From: an uncultured Eubacteriales bacterium
Lineage (GTDB): Bacteria > Acidobacteriota > Aminicenantia > Aminicenantales > Aminicenantaceae
Assembly: GCA_964477275.1 (NCBI GenBank)
Contig: CAYZDV010000001.1
Span: 1,002-65,001 of the forward strand
Direction of reading: 5' to 3'
Length of the DNA: 64,000 nt
The notes under the pieces are model-generated. The model made no database searches and was not told where the DNA came from. It worked only from the letters and a program-made list of their open reading frames with translations. A program made the translations under genes and the position numbers. Positions 516 to 59,125 of the stretch are shown one piece after another. Numbering within the stretch: the first letter of the stretch is position 1; every line of letters begins with the position of its first letter.

Positions 516-601
516 CGGTTCTCTTCCATTTTGTGCGGGTCCTTGAATGACGAAAATACTCTGAAATGGCGTCGCTCCCTTCGGATTTTTAACGCCATTC
601 C
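516..601 (+). repeat. Conserved leader element family A, copy 1 (about 86 bp) in a divergent intergenic region
   Basis: About 88% identical to 24348-24433. It contains ccattt/aaatgg and aatggcgt/acgccatt complementary segments. It lies about 35 bp downstream of a TTGAAT -35-like hexamer. Confidence 0.5.
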
Positions 602-1112
602 CTCACCGTCCATCTCCGCGCCTGAGGAACTCCGCACTCAAGACAGGTCACCTCGAACCGGATGTCCGTGTTCAGTCATTTTTTCACCAGACTGTTAAAA
701 TCTTATTTTCTTGCGGAGGAGAATTCAAGTTTTTTATCTTCCGGGCAGGCGTGCTTCAGCATTCTCCCCAATTTGTTGATAGAATGTCAATGCAGGCGAC
801 ATGTGAATAACCACTTTCTGATTTCTATCGGCAATTTTGGGCCTTCATATTAACATTGCAATTTTCAGGTAAAATGTCAAAAATGTGAGAGTGATCTCAT
901 TTCCATATCAAAGAGATATTTTCCAGGTAAAATTCAGAGAATTCCTTAATAATATTATGAACGCAATAAATAAAGTGACAGTGTATGCGCGGAGTTGAGG
1001 CCGCCCCTCAAGCCCCCGTAGCGGGGGGGTCCCGTTGGCTTTTCCGACGGGGGCTGGGGGCAGCCTCGGCGTTGCATATGTTTTGTCACATCTTCCATTG
1101 CAGTTGCATAGT

Positions 1113-1727: not shown

Positions 1728-2990
1728 ATGTCAGGATCGAAGCCTGAAAAGGGAAAGCAGCTATTCATCAGGATGGGCACTGCGCTTGGCCGGTCGCTGT
1801 TTTCTTTCTTCATTCCCGGCGGCCTTATCCTCCTCATCGCTTTTCTGTTGACCCTGGGTCAGCTGGTGGAATCGTTGCCCGGCCTTATCCGCATCTTGCC
1901 CCTGGTTATCCTGGTGGCGGGTGTGCTTATCGGCTGGCGGTTTAACCGGAGCAATTTGATTTTCGTCCTGCTCTGGCTGGCAATCGCTGACCGCGCGCTG
2001 CTCCATTTTGCTCCGGGAGAAGCTTTTTCCCAGGGAGTGGGCCGCACCCTGTATAACTCCATCGCTTTCCTTCTTCCCGTGAACCTCGTTTTTTACTCCA
2101 TGGCCAAGGAAAGGGGGATACTGAACTGGCACGGCCTGCGCCGTTTGAGCCTGATTCCTGCCCAGGCTTTTGCTGTAGCCATCATATCCAGCTACCCCCA
2201 GCTGGGGTTTGCCGTCTATCTGGAACACTCGTTCCTGAACTGGCCGCTGTTTAACGAGACACCCATTTCTCAACCCGCGCTTTTGGCCTTCGGAGCGGCG
2301 GCCCTGCTGCTGATGGCGCGCTGCATCCAGTTTCGCGGAGTGAACGATTGTGCCTGTTTCTGGGCTCTTTTCTCGGGGTTTTTCTCTTTGAACGTCCAGA
2401 AGACCGGTCCTGTATGCACACTCTATTTGACCACGGCGGGCATCATTCTTCTTGTTTCGGTGATAGAGACATCCTTCGGCAGGGCCTTCCATGACGAGCT
2501 CACCGGCCTCCCGGCCAGACGGTCTCTGAATGAAACCCTCTTCACGCTCGGAAGCCGCTATACGGTGGCCATGGTCGATATCGACAACTTCAAGAACTTT
2601 AACGATAGCTACGGTCATGACACCGGGGACCAGGTTTTGCGGATGATCGCTTCAAAGCTGAGCCACGCTTCTGGAGGCGGCAAAGCTTACAGATATGGAG
2701 GCGAGGAGTTTGTCATCGTTTTTCCAGGAAAATCCGCGGAGGAGGCCATCCCTTACCTGGAAGCGTTGAGGAAAGCCGTCGAGAGCGCGGATTTTTTTAT
2801 CCGGGGCGGCGAACGGAGACAGAAAAAGGGAAGAATAACAGGAAAATCGCGAGGCAAAACCACGGTCACCATCAGCATTGGCGTGGCCGAGAGAAACGAC
2901 CGCAGCCTGAATCCTCACCAGGTCATCAGGCAGGCGGACAGGGCCCTCTATCGAGCCAAAAATAAAGGGCGCAACCAGGTCAGCAAATAG
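1728..2990 (+). CDS. Membrane-anchored diguanylate cyclase (GGDEF domain)
   Basis: About 250 aa of hydrophobic helices, then the DIDNFKNFND...YRYGGEEFVIVFPG...RALYRAKNKGRNQV GGDEF signature (GGEEF active site). Confidence 0.85.
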   Translation: MSGSKPEKGKQLFIRMGTALGRSLFSFFIPGGLILLIAFLLTLGQLVESLPGLIRILPLVILVAGVLIGWRFNRSNLIFVLLWLAIADRALLHFAPGEAFSQGVGRTLYNSIAFLLPVNLVFYSMAKERGILNWHGLRRLSLIPAQAFAVAIISSYPQLGFAVYLEHSFLNWPLFNETPISQPALLAFGAAALLLMARCIQFRGVNDCACFWALFSGFFSLNVQKTGPVCTLYLTTAGIILLVSVIETSFGRAFHDELTGLPARRSLNETLFTLGSRYTVAMVDIDNFKNFNDSYGHDTGDQVLRMIASKLSHASGGGKAYRYGGEEFVIVFPGKSAEEAIPYLEALRKAVESADFFIRGGERRQKKGRITGKSRGKTTVTISIGVAERNDRSLNPHQVIRQADRALYRAKNKGRNQVSK

Positions 2991-3040: not shown

Positions 3041-5080
3041 ATGAGAAAAACAGCCTCAATCTTGATTATGTTTTGTCTTCTCCTGTTATGGGGAGGAGCC
3101 GGGCCTTCGCTCAGCTGGGAAAAAAATTACAGGTTGCTCGAGAAAGAAACCTTTCTGGAGATGGAGTCCATCGACAGCCCCGGCATATCCCCTGATGGAA
3201 GGTATATTCTTTTTACCCGCAGCTGGGTGGACAGGATGGAAGACCGGAGGAGAACCAATCTGTGGATGGTGGACGCGGACGGCAGCCGGGTGCGGGAACT
3301 GACTCACGGGAACTGGAGGGATTTTTCTCCTGCCTGGTCGCCTGACGGCAAAAAAATTGCCTTCCTCTCCGACCGAGACGGAACCACCCAGATTCACGTG
3401 ATGTGGCTGGATACCCGGGAAGTTGCCCAATTGACCCATCTGGAACGGGCCCCGGCAGACCTGACCTGGTCGCCGGATGGAAAACATCTGGTCTTCACCC
3501 TGTTCATCCCTGACACCCGACCGATTCTCTCTGTCAAACTCCCCGAGAGACCCAAGGGCGCAAAATGGGCAGACCCGGCTTTGATCATCGACCGATTATC
3601 CTGGAGAAGAGATGGAAGAGGGGATATCCCCAAAGGTCATGACCATATCTTCGTGATCGATGCGGTGCTGGGCGGGACTCCCCGGCAGGTCACTTCCGGC
3701 GATTTTTCCCATAACGACCCTCAGTGGTCAGCGGATGCGAAAAAGATTTTTTTCAGCGCCATCCGAAAGCCTGATGCCGAATATCTGTGGGGAGATACAG
3801 AGATTTATTCGGTCCAGCTGGAAACCCTGGAGGTCAAAGCCCTGACCGACCGCAATGGACCTGACCGGTCTCCACGGGTTTCACCGGATGGAAAGTGGAT
3901 TGCCTACACCGGATACGATGATAAGAACTTCACCAGTCATCTCTCTGACCTCTATCTTATGGACGTGGAAGGCGGTCGCAAGAAGACGCTGGCTGCCAAC
4001 CTTCCCAATTCGCCTTCTCAGATTTGGTGGGCGCCGGATAATTCCGGAACTTATTATCTGATGGCGGAGAAAGGGGAGTCCAACCTCTATTTTGTCTCCC
4101 TGGATCGGAAAATCAGCAAAATCACCGAAGGCGTTCACTATCTTTCCAGGTTCTCCATTTCCACCAACGGACAGGCAGCGGCCACACTTTCCACTTTTTA
4201 CCGGCCCGACTGCCTGGTGACTTTCCCCTTGAGCAAACCGCGCCAGATGAGAGAGCTGGTGGATGTCAACGCGGACATTCTTGCCGATATCCGTCTCGGG
4301 CAGGTTGAAGAGTTGTGGTTCAAGTCGCCCGATGGGCTTGACCTTCAGGGCTGGCTGATCAAACCGGCTGAATTTGAAAAAGGGAAAAAATACCCGATGA
4401 TTCTCTACATCCATGGCGGTCCCTGGGCCATGTACTCAGTCCGCTTCAACTGGGCCTGGCAGAATTTCGCGGCCAACGGTTATGCCGTTCTCTACATGAA
4501 TCCCCGGGGAAGCACAGGCTATGGCCAGGATTTTGTCAACGGAATTCAGCATTCCTACCCGGGAAAAGATTATGATGACCTGATGGCCGGAGTGGATGCT
4601 GCCCTGGCCAGAGGATTCATCGATGAAAAAAACCTCTTCGTCTGCGGCGGAAGCGGTGGCGGAGTGCTCACGGCCTGGATTGTCGGCCACACCAACCGCT
4701 TCCGCGCAGCCATATCCATGAGGCCGGTGATCAACTGGCACTCCTTTGTGGGAACCACTGACGGGGCCAACTGGTACAGGCAGTTCAGGAAATATCCCTG
4801 GGAAGACCCGATAGAATACGCGCGCCGTTCGCCCCTCCATTATGTGGGGAATGTCTCCACTCCCACGATGATCATGACCGGAGAGGAGGACCTGCGGACT
4901 CCGATCGGGCAGAGCGAGGAGTATTACCGCGCGTTAAAGATGCTCAAGAAAGACACCCTCCTGGTCAGGATGCCCGGTGAATACCACGGCTGGAGACGGC
5001 CTTCCCACCAGCTGCTCCAGCAGCTGTATCTTGTGGCCTGGTTCGAGAAATACAGGGCAAAGCCTGAAGAAGGGAAATAA
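3041..5080 (+). CDS. S9 family serine peptidase (prolyl oligopeptidase/acylaminoacyl peptidase type) with an N-terminal TolB-like beta-propeller; secreted
   Basis: Signal peptide. WSPDGK/ISPDG propeller repeats. C-terminal alpha/beta hydrolase with the nucleophile motif CGGSGGG. RBS AGAGGAGG sits 6 nt before the ATG at 3041. Confidence 0.85.
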   Translation: MRKTASILIMFCLLLLWGGAGPSLSWEKNYRLLEKETFLEMESIDSPGISPDGRYILFTRSWVDRMEDRRRTNLWMVDADGSRVRELTHGNWRDFSPAWSPDGKKIAFLSDRDGTTQIHVMWLDTREVAQLTHLERAPADLTWSPDGKHLVFTLFIPDTRPILSVKLPERPKGAKWADPALIIDRLSWRRDGRGDIPKGHDHIFVIDAVLGGTPRQVTSGDFSHNDPQWSADAKKIFFSAIRKPDAEYLWGDTEIYSVQLETLEVKALTDRNGPDRSPRVSPDGKWIAYTGYDDKNFTSHLSDLYLMDVEGGRKKTLAANLPNSPSQIWWAPDNSGTYYLMAEKGESNLYFVSLDRKISKITEGVHYLSRFSISTNGQAAATLSTFYRPDCLVTFPLSKPRQMRELVDVNADILADIRLGQVEELWFKSPDGLDLQGWLIKPAEFEKGKKYPMILYIHGGPWAMYSVRFNWAWQNFAANGYAVLYMNPRGSTGYGQDFVNGIQHSYPGKDYDDLMAGVDAALARGFIDEKNLFVCGGSGGGVLTAWIVGHTNRFRAAISMRPVINWHSFVGTTDGANWYRQFRKYPWEDPIEYARRSPLHYVGNVSTPTMIMTGEEDLRTPIGQSEEYYRALKMLKKDTLLVRMPGEYHGWRRPSHQLLQQLYLVAWFEKYRAKPEEGK

Positions 5081-8723: not shown

Positions 8724-10073
8724 GTGAAGCTGCTGAAAATCGGAATATCCGGCGTCAGGGGCATTGTCGGAGAGACCATCATCCCGGAACTGGTCATGAA
8801 TTTTGCCTCCGCCTTCGGCACCTATCTCGGCCCGAGGAGGGTTCTGGTCGGCCGGGACACCCGGCGTTCAAGCCCGATGCTTCAGGAAGCCTGCCTCTCT
8901 TCGTTGATTTCCGCCGGATGTGATGTTCTGGACCTGGGAATTTGTCCGACTCCCATCCTTCAGTACATGGTCAAGCCGCTGAAGGCCGGCGGCGCGATAT
9001 CCATCACCGCGGGGCATAACGACGTCAAGTGGAATGCCCTGGTTTTCATCAGCCAGGAGGGAACGTGCCTGGATGTCTTCCAGGGGGAGCAGGTTCTGGA
9101 CATCTATCACCTGGGAAAATTTGCCAAAGCGACGGTCGATAAACTGGGGACGGTGTCGGCCGTTGATGATTATCCGGCCGCCTACTTTGAGCAGCTCCGC
9201 CATTTTCTGGAAGCCCGGGCTGTCAAGACGGCAAATCTGAAAGTTGTCATCGATCCCTGCAATGGAGCCGGGGCCAAGATGATTGACCTCTTCGGCGAGC
9301 ACCTGGGCTTTGAACTTGTGCCGGTGAATAACGACCAAACCGGCTATTTTCCTCATGATCCTGAGCCGAGACCGAGGAATGCCCAGGAAGTGGCCTCGAT
9401 TGTGAAGATTATCAGCGCCGATGTGGGTTTTTTGCTCAACAGCGATGTGAGCCGTGTCTCCATCGTCTCGGAAACCGGTGAGACTCTCTCCGAGGAATAC
9501 ACTCTTCCCCTCGTTGCCAGTCACTACCTGAAGAAGAACCCGGGTCCGGTCATCACCAATCATTCCACTTCCCGGATGATTGACGATGTGGCCAGGCAGC
9601 ATGACTGCGAACTGGTCAAAGTGAAAGTCGGACAGCCCCATTCCATTCAGGCCCTGCTCAATGAAGAGGGCGTTTTGGCCGGCGAAGGAAGCGGAAGCGT
9701 GGCCATCCCCCGCTTCCAGCCATCCTTTGACGGGTTTTTAGTCATGGGCGTCATCCTGGAGATGATCGCCGTGCGCAAAATGGGAATTTCCCGGCTCATC
9801 GAGGAGCTTCCCAAGTACCATATCGTCAAGGAGAAAATCTACTGTCCTCCAACCAGAGTTCACACCGTGGTCAACGAAGTCAAGAAACTTTTCTCTGATC
9901 AGAAAATCAGCACCGTGGATGGGATCAAAGTGGAAGATGAGACCGGCTGGGTTCATGTCCGGGCCTCGGCCACAGAGCCGATGATCCGGGTCATCGCCGA
10001 GGACATTTCCAGAGAGAAAGCCAGGGAGAAAACCGAAGAGGTCCTCAATTTTATTTCCGCCATGGTCAAATGA
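8724..10073 (+). CDS. Phosphohexomutase-family paralog with degenerate active site (predicted pseudoenzyme)
   Basis: Alpha-D-phosphohexomutase fold (ISGVRG...). The catalytic loop reads ITAGHND instead of TASHNP, so the phosphoserine is replaced by Gly. The metal loop reads NSDVSR instead of DxDxDR. GTG start. The 3' end overlaps the next gene by ATGA. Confidence 0.7.
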   Translation: MKLLKIGISGVRGIVGETIIPELVMNFASAFGTYLGPRRVLVGRDTRRSSPMLQEACLSSLISAGCDVLDLGICPTPILQYMVKPLKAGGAISITAGHNDVKWNALVFISQEGTCLDVFQGEQVLDIYHLGKFAKATVDKLGTVSAVDDYPAAYFEQLRHFLEARAVKTANLKVVIDPCNGAGAKMIDLFGEHLGFELVPVNNDQTGYFPHDPEPRPRNAQEVASIVKIISADVGFLLNSDVSRVSIVSETGETLSEEYTLPLVASHYLKKNPGPVITNHSTSRMIDDVARQHDCELVKVKVGQPHSIQALLNEEGVLAGEGSGSVAIPRFQPSFDGFLVMGVILEMIAVRKMGISRLIEELPKYHIVKEKIYCPPTRVHTVVNEVKKLFSDQKISTVDGIKVEDETGWVHVRASATEPMIRVIAEDISREKAREKTEEVLNFISAMVK

Positions 10074-11443
10074 ACAGAACCACGTCCTTGAAAATCAGCA
10101 TCTCCGGCGTCCGGGGAGTGGTGGGCGAAAGTCTCTCTCCCCAGCTTGTTGCCAGGTTCGCCCAGGCTTTCGGCACTTATTCAGGAAGGGGAGATGTCGT
10201 CGTCGGACAGGACTCGAGGACCTCGGGCCTGATGGTCAAAAAGGCCGTCATATCCGGACTTTTATCGGTCGGATGCCGCCCCGTGGATATCGGAATCTGC
10301 CCCATCCCTTCCATCCAGATTTTTGCCAAACAGGTCAAGGCCATTGGCGGAATCGCGGTCACGGCCAGCCACAACCCCAAAGAATGGAACGGGCTGAAGT
10401 TCATCGGCAGGGAAGGGCATTTTTTGAATCATCATCAGGTGGAGGAATTTCTGGACATCTATCACCAGGGCGAGTTTTCCTTCGTGACTGTCGACGAATA
10501 CAGAATGCCGGAGTTTGAACAAAGCGCGACCGAGACTCATCTCAGCCGCCTGCTTTCCTATTTTGATGCCAACCTGATCAGCGGCAGGAGAATCAAGGTC
10601 GTTATTGATTGCGGCAACGGCGCCGGCGCGGTCCTTGCTCCCCGGTTTTTGAATGCCCTGGGCTGCGATGCGGTACTGCTGAACTGCGTTCCTGACGGAA
10701 AATTCGCCCATCAACCCGAGCCTGTCCCGGAGAACATCGCCGAGCTCTGCCAGAAGGTGGCCGAGCATAAAGCCGACGTGGGCTTTGTTCAGGATACGGA
10801 TGCGGACCGGCTGGCCGTTGTCAGCGAAAAAGGAGAGCCCCTCGGCGAGGAATGGACGCTTCTCCTGGCTGTGAAATATGTCTTGAGCAAAAATCCGGGA
10901 CCGGTGGTGGTCAATCTCTCCACTTCGAGGGCGATGGAAGATATCGCCAGGGACTATAATGTCCCTGTGATCAGGACCAGGATCGGCGAAATCAACGTCG
11001 TCGAGCAGATTCTGGCCCTGGAGGGCAATGCGGCCATCGGAGGCGAAGGAAATGGAGGTGTCATCCTCCCTGAAATTCATCCCTGCCGGGACAGCTTTGC
11101 GGCCATGGGTTTGATTCTGGAATTCATGGCATCATCCTCGAAATCCATTTCAGAGCTCCAGGGAGAATTTCCTCCCTATCACATGATCAAGGAGAAAATG
11201 GAAGGGACACAGGAGCAGGCGTATCACCTCATCAGAAAATTGCGGAGGAAATATGCGGAAACATGCGAAATATCGTTCCTGGATGGGATAATGCTTCAAT
11301 TCGACGACCACTGGGTTCATCTCAGGCCTTCCAACACCGAACCGGTCGTCCGTCTGATCGTGGAAGCCAGAAGCAGGGAAAGGGCAGAAGAGGTCATGAA
11401 CCGCTGGAAAAAAGAAATCCGGGAGATGACAGGATGGAAGTGA
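10070..11443 (+). CDS. Phosphoglucosamine mutase / phosphomannomutase (intact phosphohexomutase)
   Basis: Canonical VTASHNPKEWNG phosphoserine loop and DTDADR Mg loop. Translationally coupled to both upstream and downstream genes. Confidence 0.8.
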   Translation: MNRTTSLKISISGVRGVVGESLSPQLVARFAQAFGTYSGRGDVVVGQDSRTSGLMVKKAVISGLLSVGCRPVDIGICPIPSIQIFAKQVKAIGGIAVTASHNPKEWNGLKFIGREGHFLNHHQVEEFLDIYHQGEFSFVTVDEYRMPEFEQSATETHLSRLLSYFDANLISGRRIKVVIDCGNGAGAVLAPRFLNALGCDAVLLNCVPDGKFAHQPEPVPENIAELCQKVAEHKADVGFVQDTDADRLAVVSEKGEPLGEEWTLLLAVKYVLSKNPGPVVVNLSTSRAMEDIARDYNVPVIRTRIGEINVVEQILALEGNAAIGGEGNGGVILPEIHPCRDSFAAMGLILEFMASSSKSISELQGEFPPYHMIKEKMEGTQEQAYHLIRKLRRKYAETCEISFLDGIMLQFDDHWVHLRPSNTEPVVRLIVEARSRERAEEVMNRWKKEIREMTGWK

Positions 11444-14351: not shown

Positions 14352-15797
14352 ATGAATACGAAACATCTGAAAGGTTTGATGGGCCTTTGGGTTCCTGTTT
14401 TTTTCTTTTTGACTCTGGTCACTTGCTCGACGCAGAAGGATGAATCAGCCGGGGTTCGAAGCGGCAGAGAGAGAGTCGCTTCTGAATCAAAGGAGGAGAG
14501 GGACAGGCGGATGGCCTGGTGGAGAGAGGCGCGCTTTGGCCTGTTCATCCACTGGGGCCTTTATGCCCTGCCGGCCGGAGAATGGAAAGGAGAGACGCGC
14601 CATGGCGAATGGATCCTCCATACCGCGCAAATCCCGGTGGAGGAATACGAAAAATTTGCCACCCGGTTCAATCCTGTCCGGTTCAACGCCGCTCAGTGGG
14701 TGAGGCTGGCCAGGGAAGCGGGAATGAAATACATCGTCATCACCAGCAAGCACCACGACGGGTTCTGCCTCTTCGACTCGCGCCTTACCGAATACGATGT
14801 GAAGGATGCCACGCCCTTTAAGAGGGACATCCTGAAGGAGCTTGCCCGGGAATGCCATCAACAGGGAATCCAGATCTGCTGGTACTATTCCATCATGGAC
14901 TGGCATCATCCGGACTACCTTCCGCGCCGCAACTGGGAGACGCGGCCGGCGGAAAGTGCGGACTTCAATCGCTATATCGCTTATATGAAAGGACAGGTCA
15001 AGGAGTTACTCACAAACTATGGAGAAGTCGGCGTCCTCTGGTTCGACGGTGAATGGGAGGACACCTGGGACCATGAAAAGGGGGATGACCTCTACCGCTA
15101 TGTCCGTTCTCTTTCTCCCGGAATCATTATCAACAACCGGGTGGGCAAAGGAAGAGCGGGTATGGCCGGTACCTTCGACCCCGCCAAGGCAGCCGGAGAC
15201 TTCGGCACTCCCGAGCAGGAAATCCCGCTCACAGGCCTGGATTATGACTGGGAAACCTGCATGACCATGAATGACCACTGGGGATACAACGCGCATAATG
15301 CGAACTGGAAATCGACCGAAGACTTGATCCGCAAGCTGGTGGATATTGCCAGCAAGGGAGGAAATTTTCTTCTTAACGTTGGACCCACGGCTGAAGGATT
15401 GATTCCTGAACCGAGCGTGGAGAGGCTGGCCGCCATCGGCCGATGGATGAAGGTCAACGGAGAGAGCATTTACGGCACCACGGCAAGCCTGTTCTCTGAG
15501 CTGGGTTGGGGCCGCAGCACGACGAAGGGAAACAAGATATTCCTCCATGTTTTTGACTGGCCGGAGGAGAGAGAGCTGCATCTTCCGGGTCTTATCAGCA
15601 GGCCTGAGGCAGCCTTTTTCCTTGCCGACCCCGCACAAAAACTGAAGATGGATGAGAGGAACGGGGAGGCTTTCGTTCTCCTGCCGGAGAAAGCTCCGGA
15701 TCCGGCTGTTTCGGTCATCGCGCTCGAGTTTGGAGAAAGGCCGGAAGTGGCGAGATCGCCTTCAATCATCCCTCATGATGCTGGTGTTTGGCGGTGA
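14352..15797 (+). CDS. Alpha-L-fucosidase, glycoside hydrolase family 29, secreted
   Basis: WWREARFGLFIHWGLYA...ITSKHHDGFCLFDS...WYYSIMDWHHPDY are GH29 hallmarks. Confidence 0.85.
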   Translation: MNTKHLKGLMGLWVPVFFFLTLVTCSTQKDESAGVRSGRERVASESKEERDRRMAWWREARFGLFIHWGLYALPAGEWKGETRHGEWILHTAQIPVEEYEKFATRFNPVRFNAAQWVRLAREAGMKYIVITSKHHDGFCLFDSRLTEYDVKDATPFKRDILKELARECHQQGIQICWYYSIMDWHHPDYLPRRNWETRPAESADFNRYIAYMKGQVKELLTNYGEVGVLWFDGEWEDTWDHEKGDDLYRYVRSLSPGIIINNRVGKGRAGMAGTFDPAKAAGDFGTPEQEIPLTGLDYDWETCMTMNDHWGYNAHNANWKSTEDLIRKLVDIASKGGNFLLNVGPTAEGLIPEPSVERLAAIGRWMKVNGESIYGTTASLFSELGWGRSTTKGNKIFLHVFDWPEERELHLPGLISRPEAAFFLADPAQKLKMDERNGEAFVLLPEKAPDPAVSVIALEFGERPEVARSPSIIPHDAGVWR

Positions 15798-16026
15798 TGA
15801 TCACCTGCTTCATCCCAGCTTCCTGGCACACTCTGATCCACTGGCGAGCATCCAGGGCCGTGGGATTGAAAAGTGTCGGGCCTTCCTCTCCTGTCCCCCA
15901 TTCCCGGTCTGTAAAAGTGTTGATCCCGAAATGGAGAAAAGCACTGAACTCCATCTCCTGCCAGGATATCTGCCGGGAGAAGGGGACACCCCATGCCACC
16001 CATCCTCTTTCTCCATTACCCAACAA
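15766..16026 (-). pseudogene. Truncated GH29 alpha-L-fucosidase fragment (N-terminal catalytic-domain remnant)
   Basis: FSAFLHFGINTFTDREWGTGEE...ARQWIRVCQEAGMKQVIITAKHQHHEG matches the GH29 N-terminal region. It runs antisense into the 3' end of the intact GH29 gene, so it cannot be full length. Confidence 0.5.
15983..16006 (+). repeat. GC-rich repeat family B, copy 1 (GGGGACACCCCATGCCACCCATCC)
   Basis: The same 22-24 nt core recurs at 24167-24188 and 51707-51730. It contains the GGGGTGTCCCC mini-hairpin. Confidence 0.55.
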
Positions 16027-16064
16027 CTTCAGCCCAACGAGGATGGCAGGCGCAAAGGGCTCGG

Positions 16065-16110
16065 GATGGTTCGCTCAAACTCCCGCTCACTTTGCCCCGG
16101 CGAGGCAAGG
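16065..16110 (+). repeat. Repeat family C, copy 1 (hairpin CTTTGCC-CCGGCGA-GGCAAGG)
   Basis: About 80% identical over about 45 bp to 47176-47225. It has a 6-7 bp stem with a 7-nt loop. Confidence 0.45.
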
Positions 16111-16213
16111 CCTCCTCTGAGTCTTTCCTGTTGAACTTCATCTTCCGTTGGTATATTTTACGTAAAGAAGCCGATAGCAGAGCAAGGTGAAAAACCGAGT
16201 GAAGGAGTGGAAC

Positions 16214-17631: not shown

Positions 17632-22168
<4,537 letters not shown>

Positions 22169-22196
22169 AGGACGATCGAGAATGCCGCCAGCCCTG

Positions 22197-23231
22197 TCAT
22201 TCCCCTCGACGCATTATCAGCCGGAAAACCAGGGACGGTGGAGCGAAATCTCCGAGAGAACCAGACCTCTTTTCTCCTGAAAGGTTCTCTGGGGAGTTTT
22301 CCTCAACAGGATGAAAAGGATAGTTCTTTCCAGCCAGGAAAATTTTTCCTCCGGCATCGACGATAATCGCGCCGTAGTCCGGATATTTTTCCAGGATTTT
22401 TTCCGGCTGTTCACAGACAAAAAGGGCTGTGGAGAGGGCATCAGAGAGCAGAGTTTCAGGACCGCAGACCGTGACACTCTGCTTGCCCTGGGCAGGATAT
22501 CCTGTCCTGGGGTCAAAGACATGGTGATAGCGAAGGCCGTCTTTGATGAAGTACCGCTGGTAATCGCCCGTGGTCGCAGCTCCCAGCCCGGAGATGGAGA
22601 GGATTCCCAGGTAGCCATTCTGGCGGGGATGTTTGATGCCCACCTTCCAGGGCTCAGCGTTCGGGTTTGTCCCCCAGCAGTAAAGGTCGCCGCCGGCGTT
22701 AATAAACCCTCTGGAGATTCCCATCTCAAGGAGAGCCCGGGAGGCCAGGTCGACGGCAAAACCTTTGGCGATGCCCCCCCAGTCGAGAGCCATTCCCGGT
22801 TGAAGGCGAAGGAGATCGTTTTCCTCCTTGATTTTTTCCATGCCCACCTTTCCGAGAAGCGACTGAATCCGTTGAGGAGAAGGGATGCAGTCAGACTTGG
22901 TGAGGAAACCCCATTCCCTGGTCAACGGAGCCACCGTGATATCGAAACAGCCCTCTGAATTGCGGTGGACCATCAGAGCTTTTCGGTAGAGGGTGATCAC
23001 CATCGGAGATGAGAGATCCTCGCTTCCAGGGGAGAAGCGGGATTCAATTTCCGAGAAAATGCTCTGGATTTTTTCCAGAGCGAGTTTAAAAGTCGAAGGT
23101 GAGCAGAAAACGCTGACCTCACAGAGCGTATCGAAAACGGCCAGGGTGGAGGTCTGCCACCTGTCTTTCAGCCGGCACTGGATATTCAAGAAAAGAAAAG
23201 CGAAAAACAGAAGGGAAAACTTTTTAGCCAA
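22197..23231 (-). CDS. apbE: FAD:protein FMN transferase (ApbE family), lipoprotein
   Basis: ...GGIAKGFAVD...ISGLGAATTGDYQRYF...HHVFDPRTGYPA are ApbE motifs. The start is inferred as TTG at 23231, giving a lipoprotein signal (...LFLNIQC). The start is uncertain. Confidence 0.7.
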   Translation of the reverse strand: MAKKFSLLFFAFLFLNIQCRLKDRWQTSTLAVFDTLCEVSVFCSPSTFKLALEKIQSIFSEIESRFSPGSEDLSSPMVITLYRKALMVHRNSEGCFDITVAPLTREWGFLTKSDCIPSPQRIQSLLGKVGMEKIKEENDLLRLQPGMALDWGGIAKGFAVDLASRALLEMGISRGFINAGGDLYCWGTNPNAEPWKVGIKHPRQNGYLGILSISGLGAATTGDYQRYFIKDGLRYHHVFDPRTGYPAQGKQSVTVCGPETLLSDALSTALFVCEQPEKILEKYPDYGAIIVDAGGKIFLAGKNYPFHPVEENSPENLSGEKRSGSLGDFAPPSLVFRLIMRRGE

Positions 23232-23957
23232 TGGATGTATCGACAGCAGGAGAGCCCTCAATTTGCAGCAGAAGGCGGTTGGGAGCGCAGATGATGCGCT
23301 CCCCGGCCAGAGAGGCAGGAGAGGAATAGCAGCAGACTTGATTCCGGCAGGAAGATTCCACAATCCAGGCTTTTCCGTCTTTCACCCTGAGCGTTACAGG
23401 CCCTCTCCGGGCAGCATAGGTGTGCGTGATGTTTTCTGCGAGGGGAATCCGGTCGACTCTCTGTCCATTCTTATACACAGAGAGATATTTTCCGCCCAGA
23501 TGACTTCTTTGTCTTTTTTTCAGGGAAGCAACCGTCAACCAGGCTGAGACCGCATGATTTTCGGTCATTTCTTTCCAGAGCGGGAGAAGTTTCGACGACC
23601 GGATATCCAGAATTTGACCATTCCTGACCAGAGTGAAGGAAGGACGTGCGCGGCCGCGCAGGGAAGAGGAGGAGATGGTCAGCGCTGCCCGAGAGGGCTC
23701 AGCTGCTGGCTTCCAGGCCTTTCGGACAAGGCTTCGCTTGACAGCTTCTTCCCTGGGATGCCTGTTGACAAAAGCGAAAGTCGTCTCCGGCAACGCCTGG
23801 TATTTCTGGATCCCTTCCAGAAGCTGTCCGATGAAAAGGTGTGGCTCGTCTCCCACGAGAAAGAGCTCGATATCGCTTGCGGATGTTCTTGAAGCCAGAA
23901 GGAGGGGAGTCAGCAGCGGCGTGGTCAGAACGGTCTTGAAAAAATGTCGTCTGTCCA
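23224..23957 (-). CDS. TAT-exported hypothetical protein (MDRRHFFKT twin-arginine signal), Cys-containing C-terminus
   Basis: RRHFFK TAT motif plus hydrophobic stretch. GGGAGG RBS 5 nt upstream of the ATG at 23957. No recognisable catalytic motif. Stop overlaps the apbE start. Confidence 0.4.
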
Positions 23958-24078
23958 TGGTCACCTCCCGGAATCTACGGATTCATCGACCCAAATTTTT
24001 ATTCAATCCGCAAAAAAAGTCAAATCAATTAAGGCATGTGTAAGCATCTTTTTTTCCGTGAAGGCTAATATTTTTTTT

Positions 24079-24188
24079 GGATGGGTCCTGTCATGGGGTG
24101 TCCCCCGTCCGTCCTCGCTCCACCCATCCCCCCGTGGGGAACCCCTTCCGCTGCGGGCGTTGCGGAGGACACCCCATGCCACCCATCC
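24079..24188 (+). repeat. GC-rich repeat family B, copy 2 (long form with 17/19 inverted arms and internal duplication of CCACCCATCC)
   Basis: Left arm TGTCATGGGGTGTCCCCCG. Right arm CGGAGGACACCCCATGCCA is its near-perfect reverse complement, about 45 nt away. Confidence 0.55.
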
Positions 24189-24347
24189 TATTTTAAAAGG
24201 AAATGGCCTTTACCCCAGAAAAAAAGATGCTTCCAAGGCATGTTTCCCATTTATCACGCCAAATCATTTTCCGCAAGAGAGGACCGAATCGGGCGGGTTT
24301 GCCCTTTTTGGTGTTGACATGGTTTTTTATATATTGTAAACCTGATT

Positions 24348-24433
24348 GGGTCTCTTCCATTTTGTGTGGGTCATTTAATGACGAAAATACACGCAAATGG
24401 CATCGCTCCCTTCAGGTTTTTAACGCCATTCCC
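24348..24433 (+). repeat. Conserved leader element family A, copy 2
   Basis: About 88% identical to 516-601. It lies about 30 bp downstream of TTGACA, and 200 bp upstream of the DoxX gene. Confidence 0.5.
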
Positions 24434-30938: not shown

Positions 30939-31895
30939 TTGAAGACTCAAGTAGAGAGCTTCTCCCTGAAAATAACAAGGCGTGAGTTTTTTTCCCGGAT
31001 TGCATGCAGTGGGGTGTCCGGCTGCCTCCTCGGTTCAGGCTGTTTTGATTATTATCTCAGTCAAGGCAAGAGGGAGCTCACGCTGGATAAGGAATCGCAG
31101 ACGCGCCGGATTTTTTCGAAGATCATGGCCAGGGCGAAGAGGGAGGCGTGGCCCGGCCTGCCGATCGGTGAATGCATGGGAAAAATTGCCATTTCTCTAC
31201 TCGGGACCAGGTACGTCGCCGGAACCTTAGAGGGAGAAGGGCCGGAGGTGTGCCGCGTGGACCTTTCCGGCATGGATTGCGTCACCTTTTATGAGAATGT
31301 GCTCTGTCTGGCCCGAATTTTAAAGAAAGGACAGACTGCTTTTGACGATTTCATCGCTGAGCTGACCTTTGTCCGCTACCGGGGAGGCTGCCTCATGGAC
31401 TACACTTCCCGCCTCCATTACACCGCGGATTGGATTTTCGATAATGAAAAAAAGAGGGTAGTGGAGAACATCACCCCCCATAGCGGCGGAGAGAGATTTC
31501 CTGTCCGGGTCTTTTTCATGTCCAATAATTCCCGTCTCTATCCCGCCTTGAGGAGCAACCCTCAGTTCATCCCTGTCATAGCCAGGCAGGAAGAGGACAT
31601 CAGCAAGCGCAGTCACTGGATCATTCCTCGAGAGAACATTGAAAAGGTTCAGACGTATTTGCAGACCGGAGACATCGTGGCCTTCGCCGCGAGCCGTCAG
31701 GGCCTGGATTATGGCCATGCCGGACTGGTCTATCGCGGCCAGAGAGGAAAAGTCGGGCTGCTCCACGCCTCTTCAAAGAAGATGAGGGTTATTCTCGACG
31801 GAGAACTTGTCCGATGGATCCAGTCGGTGGAAACATGCCCCGGCGTGACGGTTGCCAGACCGGTTGAGGTCAGGACGGTGAGGGAATGGCGTTAA
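30939..31895 (+). CDS. Hypothetical exported protein, possible Cys/His hydrolase (DUF1460-like)
   Basis: N-terminal TRREFFSRIACSGVSGC signal. Conserved C (DCVTFYENV) and H (DYGHAGLV) residues. Assignment is tentative. Confidence 0.3.
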   Translation: MKTQVESFSLKITRREFFSRIACSGVSGCLLGSGCFDYYLSQGKRELTLDKESQTRRIFSKIMARAKREAWPGLPIGECMGKIAISLLGTRYVAGTLEGEGPEVCRVDLSGMDCVTFYENVLCLARILKKGQTAFDDFIAELTFVRYRGGCLMDYTSRLHYTADWIFDNEKKRVVENITPHSGGERFPVRVFFMSNNSRLYPALRSNPQFIPVIARQEEDISKRSHWIIPRENIEKVQTYLQTGDIVAFAASRQGLDYGHAGLVYRGQRGKVGLLHASSKKMRVILDGELVRWIQSVETCPGVTVARPVEVRTVREWR

Positions 31896-32092
31896 AAATC
31901 TGAAGGGAGCGCCGCACATCCGTTGTCACTTTATTTGTTGCGTTCATAATAAGTTCATAAAACAAAGAACCGCATGTCAAATATCAAAGTGGTTTTGACT
32001 TCAGGGAAGAGCTGTGCTATAGGTTTTTTTCAAGAACAAAGGATGAGTAAGGAGAGGGAGGCAGGGCAGGGGAGAGGCTCCTCCAGTCCTGG

Positions 32093-47150: not shown

Positions 47151-47175
47151 AAAAAAATATCCGCAGCCGAGGGGT

Positions 47176-47225
47176 CGGCACGATTCGATCAAGGTCACGC
47201 TGACTTTGCCCCGGCGAGGCAAAGC
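47176..47225 (+). repeat. Repeat family C, copy 2 (hairpin CTTTGCC-CCGGCGA-GGCAAAG)
   Basis: See 16065-16110. Perfect 7-bp stem here. Confidence 0.45.
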
Positions 47226-47408
47226 CGCTCGGTTCAATCTTGCGGGGGTCAGACTGTGTTTCTCCGGCGAGTCTCCAGATGCCGCTTTCCAGAACGCAGT
47301 TCGATCCTGAGGGTGGAGCGCAAAGAGAAGTCGATAAGACTGTTGATTTGATTCCGGTTTTCGCTTAAATTACTCAGTAGAAATGGTTCGATATCAGGGA
47401 GTGTTCAG

Positions 47409-50604: not shown

Positions 50605-51660
50605 TCATTCCAGGATGTCTCCCCAGCATTCCATGGGATTGGAGAGGACAGAGGCCGTGAGCTTTACCGTCCCATGCTCGAGGAGCGCGTTGACCTGATT
50701 GAGCCGCCGGCCGGCCATCTCTTTCTCGTCAAGTCCCGGGATAGGAATCCGGTCATAGAGAACCACGGTCTCCGCAATTTTCTGGGAGATGTTATCAAAC
50801 AGGGCTCTGGCCGCTTTCCTCCGGTCATGGATGGGATTGATGAGGAAGCCCTGGCGGCCTTCCTCGATCCGGGGGAAGAGAATGGTTACGGCTTCAGGAT
50901 CAGAAATCTCCTCAAAACTGGTTCTGTGGGATGAGAAGTCGAGAGCCGCTTTCTTCTGCCATTCATCGGTTCCTTCCTGAGTTTCCATCAGGGATAAATA
51001 CTGGGGGAAGTGGTGGGTCAGAGTGCCCAGCCTCACGTTATCCACCAGGGATCCCATGAACCAGGTAATGGCGCCGTTTTCCTTCCTGAAGTGAACGGTT
51101 TCCGTTGAAAAAAGCTGGAGTCCCCTGGCCAGTCCGCTGAGGAGATAGACCGTTTTCCCGCTGCCGGCCCCGCCGGTCACCACGTACATGTGATTTCTCT
51201 TTTCATGGTAAAGAGCACACGCATGAAGATTATAAATGGAGTGCTTCTTCTCCAGCAGATAAAGAGTATACCGGTAAAGGAATCCCTGGTTTCCCCAGAG
51301 ACTGAACCTCAAATCAGATGCCTCTTCCGACAACCGGAGGAAAGGGCCACTGAAGCGGGCTTTTTCTCCAGAAAAGGCAAAGCAAGGCTCTTCTCGTGTC
51401 TCCTCCACTGAAATGTAGCCATCGAGGTCAGTGGAGTAGAGAATCCTTTCCACGTCCTTGAAATCGGTAAGGAGCGACTTCACTTCAACGGAGGGAGGAA
51501 GGACAGGAAGGAGGTTTTCATTGTTGGATTCCAGGCCGATTCTCGCCTTGAGGATTTCAACGGCTGTCTTGAACACGCACAACTCCTCACCTCTCTTCAG
51601 GGCATATATGATACATGATACGAATCCGCTCCTCAACCATTCATGGGAACTTGAAAGCAT
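50605..51660 (-). CDS. HPr kinase/phosphorylase C-terminal-domain-like P-loop protein (hypothetical kinase)
   Basis: HMYVVTGGAGSGKTVYLLSGLARGLQLFSTETVHF has the P-loop, followed by the HprK-like helix pattern. Start chosen at the internal ATG downstream of the family-B repeat. Confidence 0.45.
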   Translation of the reverse strand: MLSSSHEWLRSGFVSCIIYALKRGEELCVFKTAVEILKARIGLESNNENLLPVLPPSVEVKSLLTDFKDVERILYSTDLDGYISVEETREEPCFAFSGEKARFSGPFLRLSEEASDLRFSLWGNQGFLYRYTLYLLEKKHSIYNLHACALYHEKRNHMYVVTGGAGSGKTVYLLSGLARGLQLFSTETVHFRKENGAITWFMGSLVDNVRLGTLTHHFPQYLSLMETQEGTDEWQKKAALDFSSHRTSFEEISDPEAVTILFPRIEEGRQGFLINPIHDRRKAARALFDNISQKIAETVVLYDRIPIPGLDEKEMAGRRLNQVNALLEHGTVKLTASVLSNPMECWGDILE

Positions 51661-51691
51661 CTTTTCTCGTGATGGTTTTTTTAAGGTGAGA

Positions 51692-51730
51692 ATGGGTCCT
51701 GTCGCGGGGTGTCCCCATGCCACCCATCCG
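51692..51730 (+). repeat. GC-rich repeat family B, copy 3 (short form)
   Basis: AATGGGTCCTGTCGCGGGGTGTCCCCATGCCACCCATCC. This is identical to the copy-2 ends but lacks its central 70 bp. Confidence 0.55.
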
Positions 51731-51811
51731 TCTTTCATAGAAAAGGTCATCACGAGGAAGGGTAATTCGTGCAACTGGAAAAAGAGGAAAGAAATCTTTA
51801 TTCGCTGAGGG

Positions 51812-53737
51812 TCAGTTGTGGAGCTGACTGGTTATTTGTTCTTTGAATTTGTAGGCCGCATTTTTTCCGTTGATGGCAGCCTGCAGGTTGGGGTCAAAGG
51901 CAAGGGCGGTGTTGAAATAGTCAATGGCCCGCTGGAAGTCTTTGTCGCTCTTTGTTTTGACGTATTCAAAGAGGTAGAGAGAGCCCATGTTGCTCCAGGC
52001 GAGGGCAAAATTGTTGTCGAACTCGATGGCGCGCTTGTAGTTTTCGAGGGCGAGCGGAAAGTTGCCGCTTTTCTGGTGGGCGACACCCAGGTAATTGAAG
52101 TACTCGGGGTTCCGGTCGTCCATTTTTATGCACTTCTGCAGGATATCGATGGCTTCCTCTTGCCTGTTGGCCACCACCAGCATGATTCCCAGCTTGGACA
52201 TGAGCCCCAGGTTTTTGGGATTGTTCCTCATTCCCTTCCGGAGGATTTCCACCGTGCTTTCGTGCTGGCCCATCACATAATAAATGCTGGCCAGATGATT
52301 GTACGCCAGGACGAAGTCCGGCCGTTTCTCGATGACTTCGATCAAATCGTTGATGGCTTCTCTGATTTTCCCTTCCCTGTATTTGAGCACCGCTTCGTAC
52401 ATCGTGTTCTGCAGCGGTTTGAGGGTTTTCAGGTCGTTCTCGACTGAGAAGGCCACTTTTTTGGGAGTCTTCCCGTCAGAAATGTAGCCCAGGCTCCGCA
52501 GCCTGTTCATTTCCCCCACGTCGATCGTTGAAAACCTCTCGGCCTTTTCCTTTCCCCGGAGTTTCTGGATGAGTTTTTCCAGGTCTTTTTCCAGCTCTTT
52601 GGTGTTCGTGCTTCCTGCCAGGTTGTTGTCCTCGAAAATATCGGCCCTGATGTCATAGACTTCCCTGATGGGCTGGTCGATGTATTTCAGGGATTCTCTG
52701 ATGAATCCCGTCAACGGTGCCCAGCCCCGGTTCAGATACGGAGTGAGGGATTCAAAGTAGATTTCCCTGTTTTTTCTTTTTTGGCCTTTGACGATGGGGA
52801 GCAGAGATTCGCCCTGGAGATGGGCAGGAATCTTATCGCCGAGCACCTCGCAGAGGGTGGGGAAGATGTCGATGTGGCAGACATTCTCTTCAATGGTTTC
52901 CGCTTTCATTCCGGGGATCCTGATGATGAGAGGAATGCGGATGGTGTTGTTATAGGCAAAATAGGAATGGGTCCTCTCTCCTTTTTCTCCCAGGGCTTCG
53001 CCGTGATCGGAAGTCAGCACGATCACCGTGTTCTCCATCATGCCTTTCTCCTGGAGAAAATCGAAGAGACGGCCGAGCTGAGCATCCACATAGGCGACTT
53101 CACCCGAGTAAGGGTCATGCCTGTATTCCTGGTCAAAGGGAGGAGGGGGGATGTAAGGCTCGTGGGGGTCAAAAAGATGAATCCAGGCAAACCACTTCTG
53201 GCTCTGGCCGGAGATCCATTCCATGGCAGGGGCGATGACTTTCTCGGCGGGTCTTTCGATAAAGTAGATTTCCAGCAGGTTCTGGCTTCCGTAGTGATCG
53301 TCGTAGATGTCAAACCCCTGGTCGAGGCCGAACCGCGAGTCGAGGGGAAAGGACCCTATAAACGCCCCCGTTGCGTATTTCCTTTCTTTCAAGTACTCAG
53401 CCAGGGTGAGAAACCTCTGGTCCAGGACAAATCCCGGGTTATCGCTGATTCCGTGGTAAATCGGCGTTGTTCCCGTGAGGATGTTGACATGGGAGGGGAG
53501 AGTGACCGGGTTATGAGCAAAAGCCCACTGAAACACCCAGGCATCAGCGGCGATTTGGTCCATGTTGGGAGTTTTGACGTATTTATCCGAATACACGCTC
53601 ACCCGGTCGTACCTGAGGGTGTCGATGGTGACCAGGAGGATGTTGATGTCTTTTTTCGGCAGGGAAGAGGAGTAGGCCAGGGATATTCCCGCCAGAAGAA
53701 CGAGCAGAGTCCTGAAGAATTTCATGAAACCTTTCAT
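51812..53737 (-). CDS. Sulfatase-like hydrolase/transferase (alkaline phosphatase superfamily, Thr-type nucleophile) with C-terminal TPR repeats; secreted
   Basis: NILLVTIDTLRYDR. The motif NPVTLPSH replaces the C/S-x-P-x-R formylglycine motif. C-terminal about 200 aa are TPR-like. Confidence 0.65.
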   Translation of the reverse strand: MKGFMKFFRTLLVLLAGISLAYSSSLPKKDINILLVTIDTLRYDRVSVYSDKYVKTPNMDQIAADAWVFQWAFAHNPVTLPSHVNILTGTTPIYHGISDNPGFVLDQRFLTLAEYLKERKYATGAFIGSFPLDSRFGLDQGFDIYDDHYGSQNLLEIYFIERPAEKVIAPAMEWISGQSQKWFAWIHLFDPHEPYIPPPPFDQEYRHDPYSGEVAYVDAQLGRLFDFLQEKGMMENTVIVLTSDHGEALGEKGERTHSYFAYNNTIRIPLIIRIPGMKAETIEENVCHIDIFPTLCEVLGDKIPAHLQGESLLPIVKGQKRKNREIYFESLTPYLNRGWAPLTGFIRESLKYIDQPIREVYDIRADIFEDNNLAGSTNTKELEKDLEKLIQKLRGKEKAERFSTIDVGEMNRLRSLGYISDGKTPKKVAFSVENDLKTLKPLQNTMYEAVLKYREGKIREAINDLIEVIEKRPDFVLAYNHLASIYYVMGQHESTVEILRKGMRNNPKNLGLMSKLGIMLVVANRQEEAIDILQKCIKMDDRNPEYFNYLGVAHQKSGNFPLALENYKRAIEFDNNFALAWSNMGSLYLFEYVKTKSDKDFQRAIDYFNTALAFDPNLQAAINGKNAAYKFKEQITSQLHN

Positions 53738-54753: not shown

Positions 54754-54839
54754 ATCTTTTTTTTGCTAAACTTCATTTTCCTCATTTAACCTGGATTATT
54801 AAAGGGATGTCAAACATTATCATCAAGGAAAGGAGGAAC

Positions 54840-56468: not shown

Positions 56469-56478
56469 AGGAGGCGTG

Positions 56479-57798
56479 ATGATGAAAAGAACAAAGATCA
56501 GACTCACACTCGGCGTATGCCTTCTTTTGATTTTCTCCGGCTTCTCTTCCGGGCAGGACCTTTTGATCAAAAACGGAACAGTGCTGACCGTGACCGGGGG
56601 AACGATGGAAAGCGGGGATATCCTGATCAGGGGAGGAGTTATCCAGAAAATCGGAAAAAACCTCCCGGTCCCGGCGGGAATAAAAGTCATCGATGCAAGC
56701 GGAAAATACGTCATGCCGGGAATCATCGATTCCCATACCCACATCGCGCTCACCGGCACCAACGAGAGCTCGGAGGCGATCACCCCCGAGGTCAGGATGC
56801 GGGATGTGGTGGATGCCGAAGACCCGTCCATCTACACGGCTCTCTCCGGCGGTGTGACCATGGTCCACACCATGCACGGCAGCGGGAACCCGATCGGAGG
56901 CGAGAATATCGTCCTCAAGATGAAATGGGGAAAAACCGCTGAGGAAATGCTCGTTCCAGAGGCTTACAGGACACTCAAGTTCGCCCTGGGTGAAAATCCC
57001 AAACAGGCGAATGTCTTCGCACTCGGAACACCCCGTTATCCCCAGACCCGGATGGGCGTCAACGCCATCATCCGCCGGGAATTTTTAAAGGCTAAAAATT
57101 ACATGGAGCAGTGGGAGAGGCATGAAAAGCTGATAAAATCCAAAAAGGCACCGAGGAACCTCATCCCGCCCCGCAGGGACCTCCGCATGGAGCAGCTGGC
57201 GGACATGCTCAGAGGAAAAATGCTGGCCCGCTGTCATACCTACCGGGCCGACGAGACTCTGGAGTTCATCAAGCTTTCCAAAGAGCTCGGGTTCAAAATC
57301 GCCTGTTTCGAGCACGCCTCAGAAGCCTTCAAGATCACCAGGGAGCTGGCTGAAGAAGGCATCGGCATCTCCATCTTTCTCGACAACTGGGCGTATAAAG
57401 TGGAAGCCTCCGAAGGGATTGCCTATAACGCGGCATACTGCACACAGAAGGGCGTGCTGGTCTCCATCAACTCCGACAGCGGGGAAAGGATCAGGCGCCT
57501 GTTCAACGACGCGGGCAAAGCCATAAAGTACGGCGGCCTCTCTGAGGAAGATTGCCTGAAGCTCATCACCATCAACCCGGCCATCCAGCTCGGGGTGGAG
57601 AAGATCGCCGGAAGCCTGGAAGAGGGAAAGCACGGCGATATCGCCATCTTCAGTGAACACCCGCTCTCCGCCTACACTCTCTGTGAGATGACCATCATCG
57701 AGGGCAACGTTTATTTTGACCGGACCCAACACCTGAAAGAACGCGAGGAAATGGAGAAGAAAAAAACCGAAAAAGAGAAAAAGGGAGGGATAAAATGA
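56479..57798 (+). CDS. Amidohydrolase (canonical HxH metal site), secreted
   Basis: MPGIIDSHTHIALTG, CHTY, FEHAS and SINSDSG give a complete binuclear metal ligand set. AAGGAGG RBS. Confidence 0.8.
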   Translation: MMKRTKIRLTLGVCLLLIFSGFSSGQDLLIKNGTVLTVTGGTMESGDILIRGGVIQKIGKNLPVPAGIKVIDASGKYVMPGIIDSHTHIALTGTNESSEAITPEVRMRDVVDAEDPSIYTALSGGVTMVHTMHGSGNPIGGENIVLKMKWGKTAEEMLVPEAYRTLKFALGENPKQANVFALGTPRYPQTRMGVNAIIRREFLKAKNYMEQWERHEKLIKSKKAPRNLIPPRRDLRMEQLADMLRGKMLARCHTYRADETLEFIKLSKELGFKIACFEHASEAFKITRELAEEGIGISIFLDNWAYKVEASEGIAYNAAYCTQKGVLVSINSDSGERIRRLFNDAGKAIKYGGLSEEDCLKLITINPAIQLGVEKIAGSLEEGKHGDIAIFSEHPLSAYTLCEMTIIEGNVYFDRTQHLKEREEMEKKKTEKEKKGGIK

Positions 57799-59069: not shown

Positions 59070-59125
59070 GCCAGGGGAACATCTCTCCTGGAATGTCCCT
59101 TTTTCAGAATAGAAAAGGAGGCGCC

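Follow-up and report, generated by a model that had tools for sequence, protein, structure and literature searches.

The 64,000-nucleotide stretch of DNA analysed here (the window; contig CAYZDV010000001.1 of assembly GCA_964477275.1) looks like the ordinary chromosome of a polysaccharide-degrading bacterium, and a GC-rich hairpin that we refer to as family B recurs in it at three sites. The second of these, copy 2, occupies the interval that separates the start of a gene for a NusG_II-domain protein (23224–23958, minus strand) from a DoxX gene, which runs on the plus strand from position 24635. A sequence-only reading of the window had listed three copies, each 5′ of a minus-strand gene and in one orientation, and had proposed that they represent either a small mobile element or a conserved regulatory leader. 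The three copies are borne out: the 22-mer GGACACCCCATGCCACCCATCC is exact at 15984–16005 and 24167–24188 and carries three mismatches at 51708–51729, giving three matches against 0.01 expected, a count that none of 100 shuffles reached. Their placement was also as described, with 3/3 copies located 5′ of minus-strand reading frames in a single orientation. We argue below that the hairpin is probably the centre of a miniature inverted-repeat transposable element (MITE).

The complete element, copy 2, spans 24040–24234 (195 bp), with the previously described hairpin (24079–24188) at its centre; the sequence-only reading had captured the core of the feature but not its boundaries, as homology runs outward to terminal inverted repeats (TIRs) and a 9-bp flanking duplication. 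Proceeding from the left along the plus strand, the 9-bp target-site duplication AAGGCATGT (24031–24039), for which an identical 9-mer is present at 24235–24243, is followed by the 18-nt left TIR GTAAGCATCTTTTTTTCC (24040–24057), 94% complementary to 24218–24235 at the right end, and by the left AT-rich spacer GTGAAGGCTAATATTTTTTTT (24058–24078), which aligns with relatives and, in the foldback, is base-paired to the right spacer. The left arm of the GC-rich hairpin (24079–24103) pairs with 24167–24188, and between the two arms is the sequence-conserved centre (24104–24166), which contains an internal CCACCCATCC and the apex CCCCCCGTGGGG and is deleted in copy 3. Downstream of the right arm, which is the 22-mer itself, the right AT-rich spacer TATTTTAAAAGGAAATGGCCTTTACCCC (24189–24216), of which AAAGGAAAT is kept in all full copies, leads to the right TIR (24217–24234, minus strand; reverse complement GGAAGCATCTTTTTTTCT) and to the second AAGGCATGT (24235–24243), matching the left one at 9/9 positions. 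The inverted 19-nt arms recorded earlier for this copy, complementary at 17/19 positions, were confirmed at 24089–24107 and 24163–24181, with a distance between them of 55 nt rather than approximately 45 nt. The internal duplication was likewise recovered, with CCACCCATCC at 24120–24129 and 24179–24188, and the hairpin additionally carries the terminal 8-mers GGATGGGT/ACCCATCC. The mini-hairpin GGGG(TGT/ACA)CCCC is present in all three window copies.

The structural propensity of this sequence is strong. Folding the 141-nt region as RNA gives −64 kcal/mol (z −5.4 relative to shuffles) for the plus strand and −69 kcal/mol (z −6.0) for the minus strand, and the entire 24040–24234 interval, with DNA parameters, folds as a single foldback (−47.9 kcal/mol, z −7.8). 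No coding capacity is apparent, the only protein-database matches being spurious open reading frames (ORFs) in several frames. Rfam 15 returned no gathering-score match in the window, and nothing credible at E ≤ 10 near copy 2 or at E ≤ 1 in six related loci.

Relatives were found by a protein-database search with concatenated six-frame translations of 24079–24188, after which the contigs of the matched ORFs were fetched. The motif is not confined to the three sites in the window: related copies, adjoining unrelated genes, are present at eight other independent metagenome loci and in one Aminicenantes metagenome-assembled genome (MAG; L006), the latter with two remnants in 15.8 kb. Relatives with the full layout of copy 2 are situated between genes for iPGM and an S9 peptidase (L007) and next to a cupin gene (L008/L009). 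Longer forms of that layout lie between genes for an M28 peptidase and PTS-EIIA (L010), between genes for GT9 and an MFS transporter (L011/L030), next to a PfkB gene (L012), and in L013; hairpin-only copies were found in L027/L028 and L029. Alignment of the loci shows that similarity ends at the ends of the TIRs, and it reveals a common layout of TIRs of the form G[T/G]AAGCATCTTTTTTTCC, AT-rich spacers and the GC-rich hairpin, to which some copies add an extra apex module of ~150 nt. Across the family the TIRs measure 17–18 bp, the AT-rich spacers ~20–28 bp per side and the hairpin 110 nt, and the long forms in other loci reach 331–340 bp. A GTAAGCATCTTTTTTTCC-type terminus is also present in L004, L007, L008, L009, L010, L011, L012, L013 and L006. 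Copies occupy divergent, tandem and convergent intergenic regions, and the decay products of the window recur elsewhere, with a tip-deleted copy at 10080–10180 of L006 comparable to window copy 3, and a one-arm remnant at 13535–13560 of L030 comparable to window copy 1; L030 holds one full copy and one remnant in 20 kb. Between hosts the element retains ~85–90% nucleotide identity, while the NusG_II protein of the window and its orthologous relatives are only 45–54% identical; the named ones among these nearest relatives belong to Candidatus Aminicenantes MAGs.

The flanking sequences bear on mobility. The perfect duplication at copy 2 is matched by a second at L008 (CTTAAAACA, 9/9), and near-perfect duplications were detected at L007 (TCAAAAAAC/TTAAAAAAC, 8/9) and L010 (CATTATTTA/TATTATTTA, 8/9 when read by eye with 8840 taken as the left end; the computed value was 3/9 with the boundary 1 nt off). 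In all, four of the seven full copies carry a flanking duplication of 8–9/9, different in sequence at each locus; the chance of at least 4/7 loci reaching 8/9 is ~1e-10, and in the surrounding 740 nt none of 740 9-mers matches at ≥8/9. The computed flanking 9-mers of the remaining full copies agree at 6/9 positions each in L011 and L012 and at 1/9 in L013.

Taken together, because of the TIRs, the locus-specific 9-bp duplications, the unrelated neighbouring genes and the usual decay products, we read family B as the GC-rich centre of a ~195-bp non-coding foldback MITE, that is, a non-autonomous DNA transposon, with a probability of roughly 0.7. A small size, in MITEs roughly 50–500 bp, without coding sequence, inverted termini and a duplication of fixed length but locus-specific sequence are among the features by which MITEs are recognized, and the earlier suggestion of a MITE-like mobile element is supported by the perfect duplication at copy 2 and by the dispersed relatives. 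In the mechanism that we envisage, a transposase encoded elsewhere would bind both element ends, cut the target with a 9-bp stagger and insert the element, giving rise to the 9-bp duplication that is itself observed. The element encodes nothing and most likely lacks a dedicated function; copies positioned just upstream of promoters could influence neighbouring genes. It adds a new case to a familiar class of selfish DNA and shows some features that are not explained.

The three copies in the window differ in their state of preservation. Copy 2 is complete and, because it is intact with a perfect duplication, probably the youngest, a fairly recent insertion between divergent genes. Copy 3 (51653–51769, plus strand) has kept its left TIR, GAAAGCATCTTTTCTCG, together with a short hairpin (51692–51729), and its right end is decayed; nhmmer matched it to profile positions 2–66 and 134–176. 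Its outer inverted repeat (51663–51681/51741–51759) is 79% complementary, the right terminal repeat has decayed (10/16), and its flanks show no clear target duplication (3/9). As the sequence-only reading had it, copy 3 lacks a central 70 nt: it equals copy 2 minus exactly 24104–24173. The proposed route, deletion between the internal direct repeats, did not hold up, as the junction (GGGGTGTCC|CCATGCC, with 2–4 nt of C-run microhomology) falls at the hairpin tip and not between the CCACCCATCC repeats; a CCACCCATCC-to-CCACCCATCC deletion was rejected since it would take out 59 nt and leave another junction. We infer that copy 3 is older, and that a palindrome-type deletion removed the tip of its hairpin; the loss of 70 nt fits slippage across the base of the palindrome tip.

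Copy 1 (15976–16010, plus strand) is a right-arm remnant in which the left half and both TIRs are absent, and nhmmer aligned it to profile positions 117–155 only. It directly adjoins an N-terminal pseudogene fragment of a GH29 alpha-L-fucosidase (15766–15970, minus strand). The encompassing ORF (15766–16026, minus strand) matches the GH29 family (Pfam PF01120, E 4.2e-7) at profile positions 87–120 of 345; the fragment comprises ~65 codons, without the signal peptide and without the catalytic part and C-terminal three quarters. Copy 1 is fused to this fragment at codon ~25, and the truncated end of the fragment overlaps the last ~30 nt of an intact plus-strand GH29 fucosidase gene (14352–15797). 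Copy 1 would then be a half-element that remained after a deletion extending from mid-element into the adjacent GH29 paralogue, which truncated the gene. Under the transposon reading, both the truncation of this GH29 gene and the three unusual GC-rich hairpins of the contig are explained as traces of one transposon family.

Of the downstream genes named in the sequence-only reading, the GH29 fragment and the twin-arginine (TAT) protein stand, the latter being the NusG_II protein downstream of copy 2, which carries an RRHFFK twin-arginine motif. The "HprK-like" assignment is unverified: on one side of copy 3 a sulfatase-TPR gene ends (51812–53737, minus strand), and on the other begins the gene for a P-loop protein, for which no family match was found.

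Bacterial MITEs share small size, lack of coding sequence, TIRs, a duplication of fixed length, intergenic location and a long-hairpin fold, and their families likewise include internally deleted and internally enlarged variants. Correia/NEMIS, ERIC and RUP are bacterial MITEs; Correia, ERIC and RUP duplicate TA, and ERIC elements display both internal insertion variants and compensatory hairpin changes. The present element differs from other bacterial MITEs in its very GC-rich conserved centre within AT-rich outer parts and in its uncultured, Aminicenantes-like host. The duplication is 9 bp here and 4 bp in MITEPsy1, a MITE of Pseudomonas syringae (PMC3189936). A resemblance to IS66 is confined to the first 6 nt of the termini: IS66 terminal repeats begin GTAAGCG (PMC11946415) or GTAAGCGTCCGGCG (PMC12888890), and many element ends read GTAAGCATC, with GTAAGCA (6/7 nt of GTAAGCG) in about half of the ends and GGAAGC, AGAAGC or ATAAGC in the rest. 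As the duplication is 9 bp in both perfect cases here and 8 bp in IS66 (PMC11946415, PMC12888890), we did not file the element under IS66. Neither the window nor any of the fetched loci showed an IS66-type transposase.

The repeated GC-rich, imperfect intergenic palindromes are also reminiscent of repetitive extragenic palindromes (REPs) and bacterial interspersed mosaic elements (BIMEs), which are sometimes nested or mosaic. REPs are 20–40-nt units that have neither TIRs nor target duplications and are associated with a gene for a REP-associated tyrosine transposase (RAYT). The possibility that family B is a REP/BIME-type palindrome moved by a RAYT (Y1) transposase, or else a family of intrinsic terminators, draws on the palindrome being followed by TATTTT on the plus strand, and on the hairpin of L027, which is located between convergent genes, its flanks being A-rich and T-rich. 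We regard it as very improbable. The element is longer than a REP and bears 18-nt TIRs and 9-bp duplications, and no RAYT gene is visible in the window; with respect to termination, a terminator scan called none at the elements, copy 2 lies between divergent gene starts where there is no transcript to terminate, and on the minus strand an A-run rather than a T-run comes after the hairpin. Integron attC sites offer a further parallel in their imperfect hairpins of ~60–140 nt with stem structure conserved above sequence; here, by inspection, there are no GTTRRRY core sites, TIRs and duplications flank the element, and neither an integrase nor a cassette array is found near it.

Several observations weigh against the MITE reading. 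Three of the seven full copies lack a convincing duplication, and the hairpins of L027 and L029 occur without recognizable TIRs. No transposase appears among the scanned window ORFs or in the gene tables of the fetched loci, and no autonomous parent with these ends was found, no search aimed at one having been made. The window (64 kb) contains only one intact copy and two remnants, and when GTDB representative genomes were scanned for exact occurrences of GGWSWCCCCATGCCACCCATCC there were 0 matches, the pattern being too strict (relatives read CCCCGTG, not CCCCATG). Assemblies from the same organism end inside the element, offering neither polymorphism nor an empty site. Two features of the element, moreover, exceed what a passive MITE requires. 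Across nine independent copies the stem covaries at 8 pairs (12 cells), against 0/500 shuffles and 0–2 in slid controls, as exemplified by CATGGGG/CCCCATG versus CACGGGG/CCCCGTG and GGATGGG/CCCATCC versus GACGGG/CCCGTC. The 60-nt centre is conserved above the stem, with a pairwise difference of 8% versus 21% in the arms; in L027 there are 0/61 differences in the centre versus 15/50 in the arms, and in L029 5/61 versus 17/50.

These last features raise the possibility that the element is a mobile cassette and is itself functional, as a structured RNA, a single-stranded DNA or a protein-binding site, and its working part would be the 60-nt centre and the covarying stem. We consider this unlikely. 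Pairing in the stem is maintained through double changes, and the centre is the better conserved part; templated repair between the palindrome arms could, however, yield such compensatory changes without selection. A strand preference was not seen, wobble-compatible mismatches numbering 2 versus 4 and both strands folding equally well, and copies 1 and 3 of the window, both degenerate, give no indication of being maintained.

A second set of features concerns promoters, which we recognized as consensus matches only. The -35 hexamer of a sigma70-like promoter for the NusG_II/TAT gene (TTGACT-17-AAAAAT, 23995–24023, minus strand) lies 16 bp beyond the end of copy 2, and sigma70-like promoters are found at the same distance beyond the left end of copy 3 (TTGAGG-17-TATCAT, 51608–51636, minus strand) and beyond the element end in L007 (TTGACA-17-TATAGT, 11/12, 2047–2075, minus strand). 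Matching offsets apply to TTGACA in L008 (2754–2759) and TATAAT in L006 (6747–6775), the latter at an element end 5′ of the L006 gene orthologous to NusG_II of the window, such that promoter-like sites or perfect single hexamers recur at the 16-bp offset in five independent loci. The terminal repeat would span about −72 to −52 relative to such promoters, and start codons fall 65–109 nt from the gene-facing element ends. The probability of the 16-bp coincidence varies with the null model, from ~1e-5 to 1e-2, for an offset that was noticed after the fact. The offset may reflect target choice, survival of promoter-sparing insertions, or a role for the terminal repeat at about −62.

In the same, unlikely account of a functional cassette, the element would be placed or kept at a set position upstream of promoters, for instance as a regulator site at about −62 or an insulator. 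The recurring offset and the start-codon distances speak for it, as does the covarying stem; the data comprise just nine sequences and ~17 element ends, and copies also occur between convergent genes or downstream of genes (L011, L012, L027). The further proposal of a mobile promoter-upstream cassette in place of inert selfish DNA, landing or surviving with its end exactly 16 bp upstream of the -35 hexamer, with a constrained 60-nt centre and a covarying stem, is slightly less probable still. If true, many unrelated promoters in Aminicenantes-like bacteria would be wired to one DNA- or RNA-binding factor, and the terminal repeat would sit at the position typical of an upstream activator site.

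The long forms (L010, L011, L013, L030 and L012) carry, near the apex, a nested GC-rich module of ~150 nt, the M module, which the window lacks. It is located at 4995–5150 in L011, 805–965 in L013 and 10120–10277 in L030, and on the minus strand at 8935–9095 in L010 and 1620–1775 in L012; two mirror positions and orientations occur, with L012 the mirror image of the other long forms. Within the module, conserved GGTCGCAGG, CCGAGAAGGGGAGGCAGSGAGC and CGTTGGAAGGGGGAA are separated by hairpins whose sequences are wholly different yet paired, and this retention of shape counts in favour of a functional cassette; the module, like the element, has no Rfam match. The M module is also present alone in other metagenome ORFs (P0131–P0142). 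In the functional scenario it would represent a second, independently mobile structured unit. Should more copies bear out the fixed spacing to promoters, the constraint on the centre and the nesting of the module, the family would furnish a tractable MITE that spreads a cis-acting site; currently, this is only a lead.

The predicted promoters also bear on the alternative put forward in the sequence-only reading, a cis-regulatory 5′ leader of the downstream minus-strand genes, akin to an attenuator or a riboswitch. The uniform placement of the window copies accords with a leader, ~8/10 copies have a same-direction gene within 16–400 nt, and each of two ACCCATCC segments is a possible pairing partner of the left arm. 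We nonetheless judge a leader highly improbable. The genes that follow are unrelated from locus to locus (NusG_II/TAT, P-loop, iPGM, PTS-EIIA, MFS transporter and others), the copies lie in divergent, tandem and convergent settings, TIRs and flanking duplications are not features of leaders, and Rfam again gave no match. Predicted promoters stand between element and gene at copies 2 and 3 and at L007; therefore, the hairpin would be upstream of the transcription start and not in the mRNA. That the left arm pairs alternatively with the internal ACCCATCC was rejected, as changes in the arms (L027, L029) are not accompanied by covariation of the internal copy.

Further searches were made for relatives and for an empty site. 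A further protein query with six-frame translations, this time from L008, gave a single match, the TilS protein P0143 of L027, the last ~30 residues of which are probably element-derived, with the gene reading through the copy. Two matches to GGWSWCCCCATGCCACCCATCC in JGI metagenomes were set aside as chance, being at an unrelated ORF start with no other part of the element; in viral contigs the TIR pattern gave 0 matches, and the 17-mer arm pattern gave 13, all chance hits in unrelated sequence. BLAST against plasmids and phages gave no match. A search for the orthologous locus via the NusG_II protein yielded only relatives of 45% identity, L005 and L006, too distant for an empty-site comparison.

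Two Logan assemblies, L003 (SRR8652707) and L004 (SRR8652706), correspond to window positions 18847–24048 and 19583–24069, respectively, with 99.98–100% identity, and both end in the left outer part of copy 2, at A/T runs before the GC-rich hairpin. These ends fit, anecdotally, a repeat or hairpin that breaks assemblies.

The two hairpin-only relatives have their own peculiarities. In L029, a diverged hairpin with very short outer parts (1563–1730) is bounded by a 12-bp direct repeat, TTCTTTATTGGC, unlike the duplications of 9 bp that flank TIR-bearing copies. In L027 (also L028), the diverged hairpin at 4670–4785 lies between convergent TilS and asparagine synthase genes.

For annotation, the MITE reading carries a warning, in that the small ORFs which public metagenomes list across such elements (P0121–P0143) are spurious, and the C-terminus of one real gene, TilS (P0143, L027), extends into a copy. 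It also provides an initial view of non-autonomous mobile DNA among Aminicenantes-like bacteria, which are not known from sources other than MAGs and single-cell genomes.

The window contains other repeats and duplications. Two tandem phosphoglucomutase/phosphomannomutase paralogues (8724–11443) and a run of amidohydrolase-family paralogues with a common repeated motif (54807–60952) are ordinary gene duplications. A separate repeat family, family A, with the core AATGGCGTCGCTCCCTTCRGRTTTTTAACGCCATTCCC, has copies that are 88–97% alike at 517–611 (plus strand), 24348–24433 (plus strand) and 31873–31951 (minus strand), each upstream of a same-direction gene and two with TTGACA just 5′; the window scan gave no Rfam match for it. 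Its translation (MTKIH.N..APFRFLTPFP/..QVFNA.P) recurs in the metagenome ORFs P0133 and P0137, and family A is therefore conserved beyond the source genome. A third family, unrelated to family B, consists of two 57-nt copies (16056–16112 and 47170–47226; 82% alike) that end in the hairpin CTTTGCCCCGGCGAGGCAAAG; both are downstream of plus-strand genes, and one lies 50 nt from copy 1.

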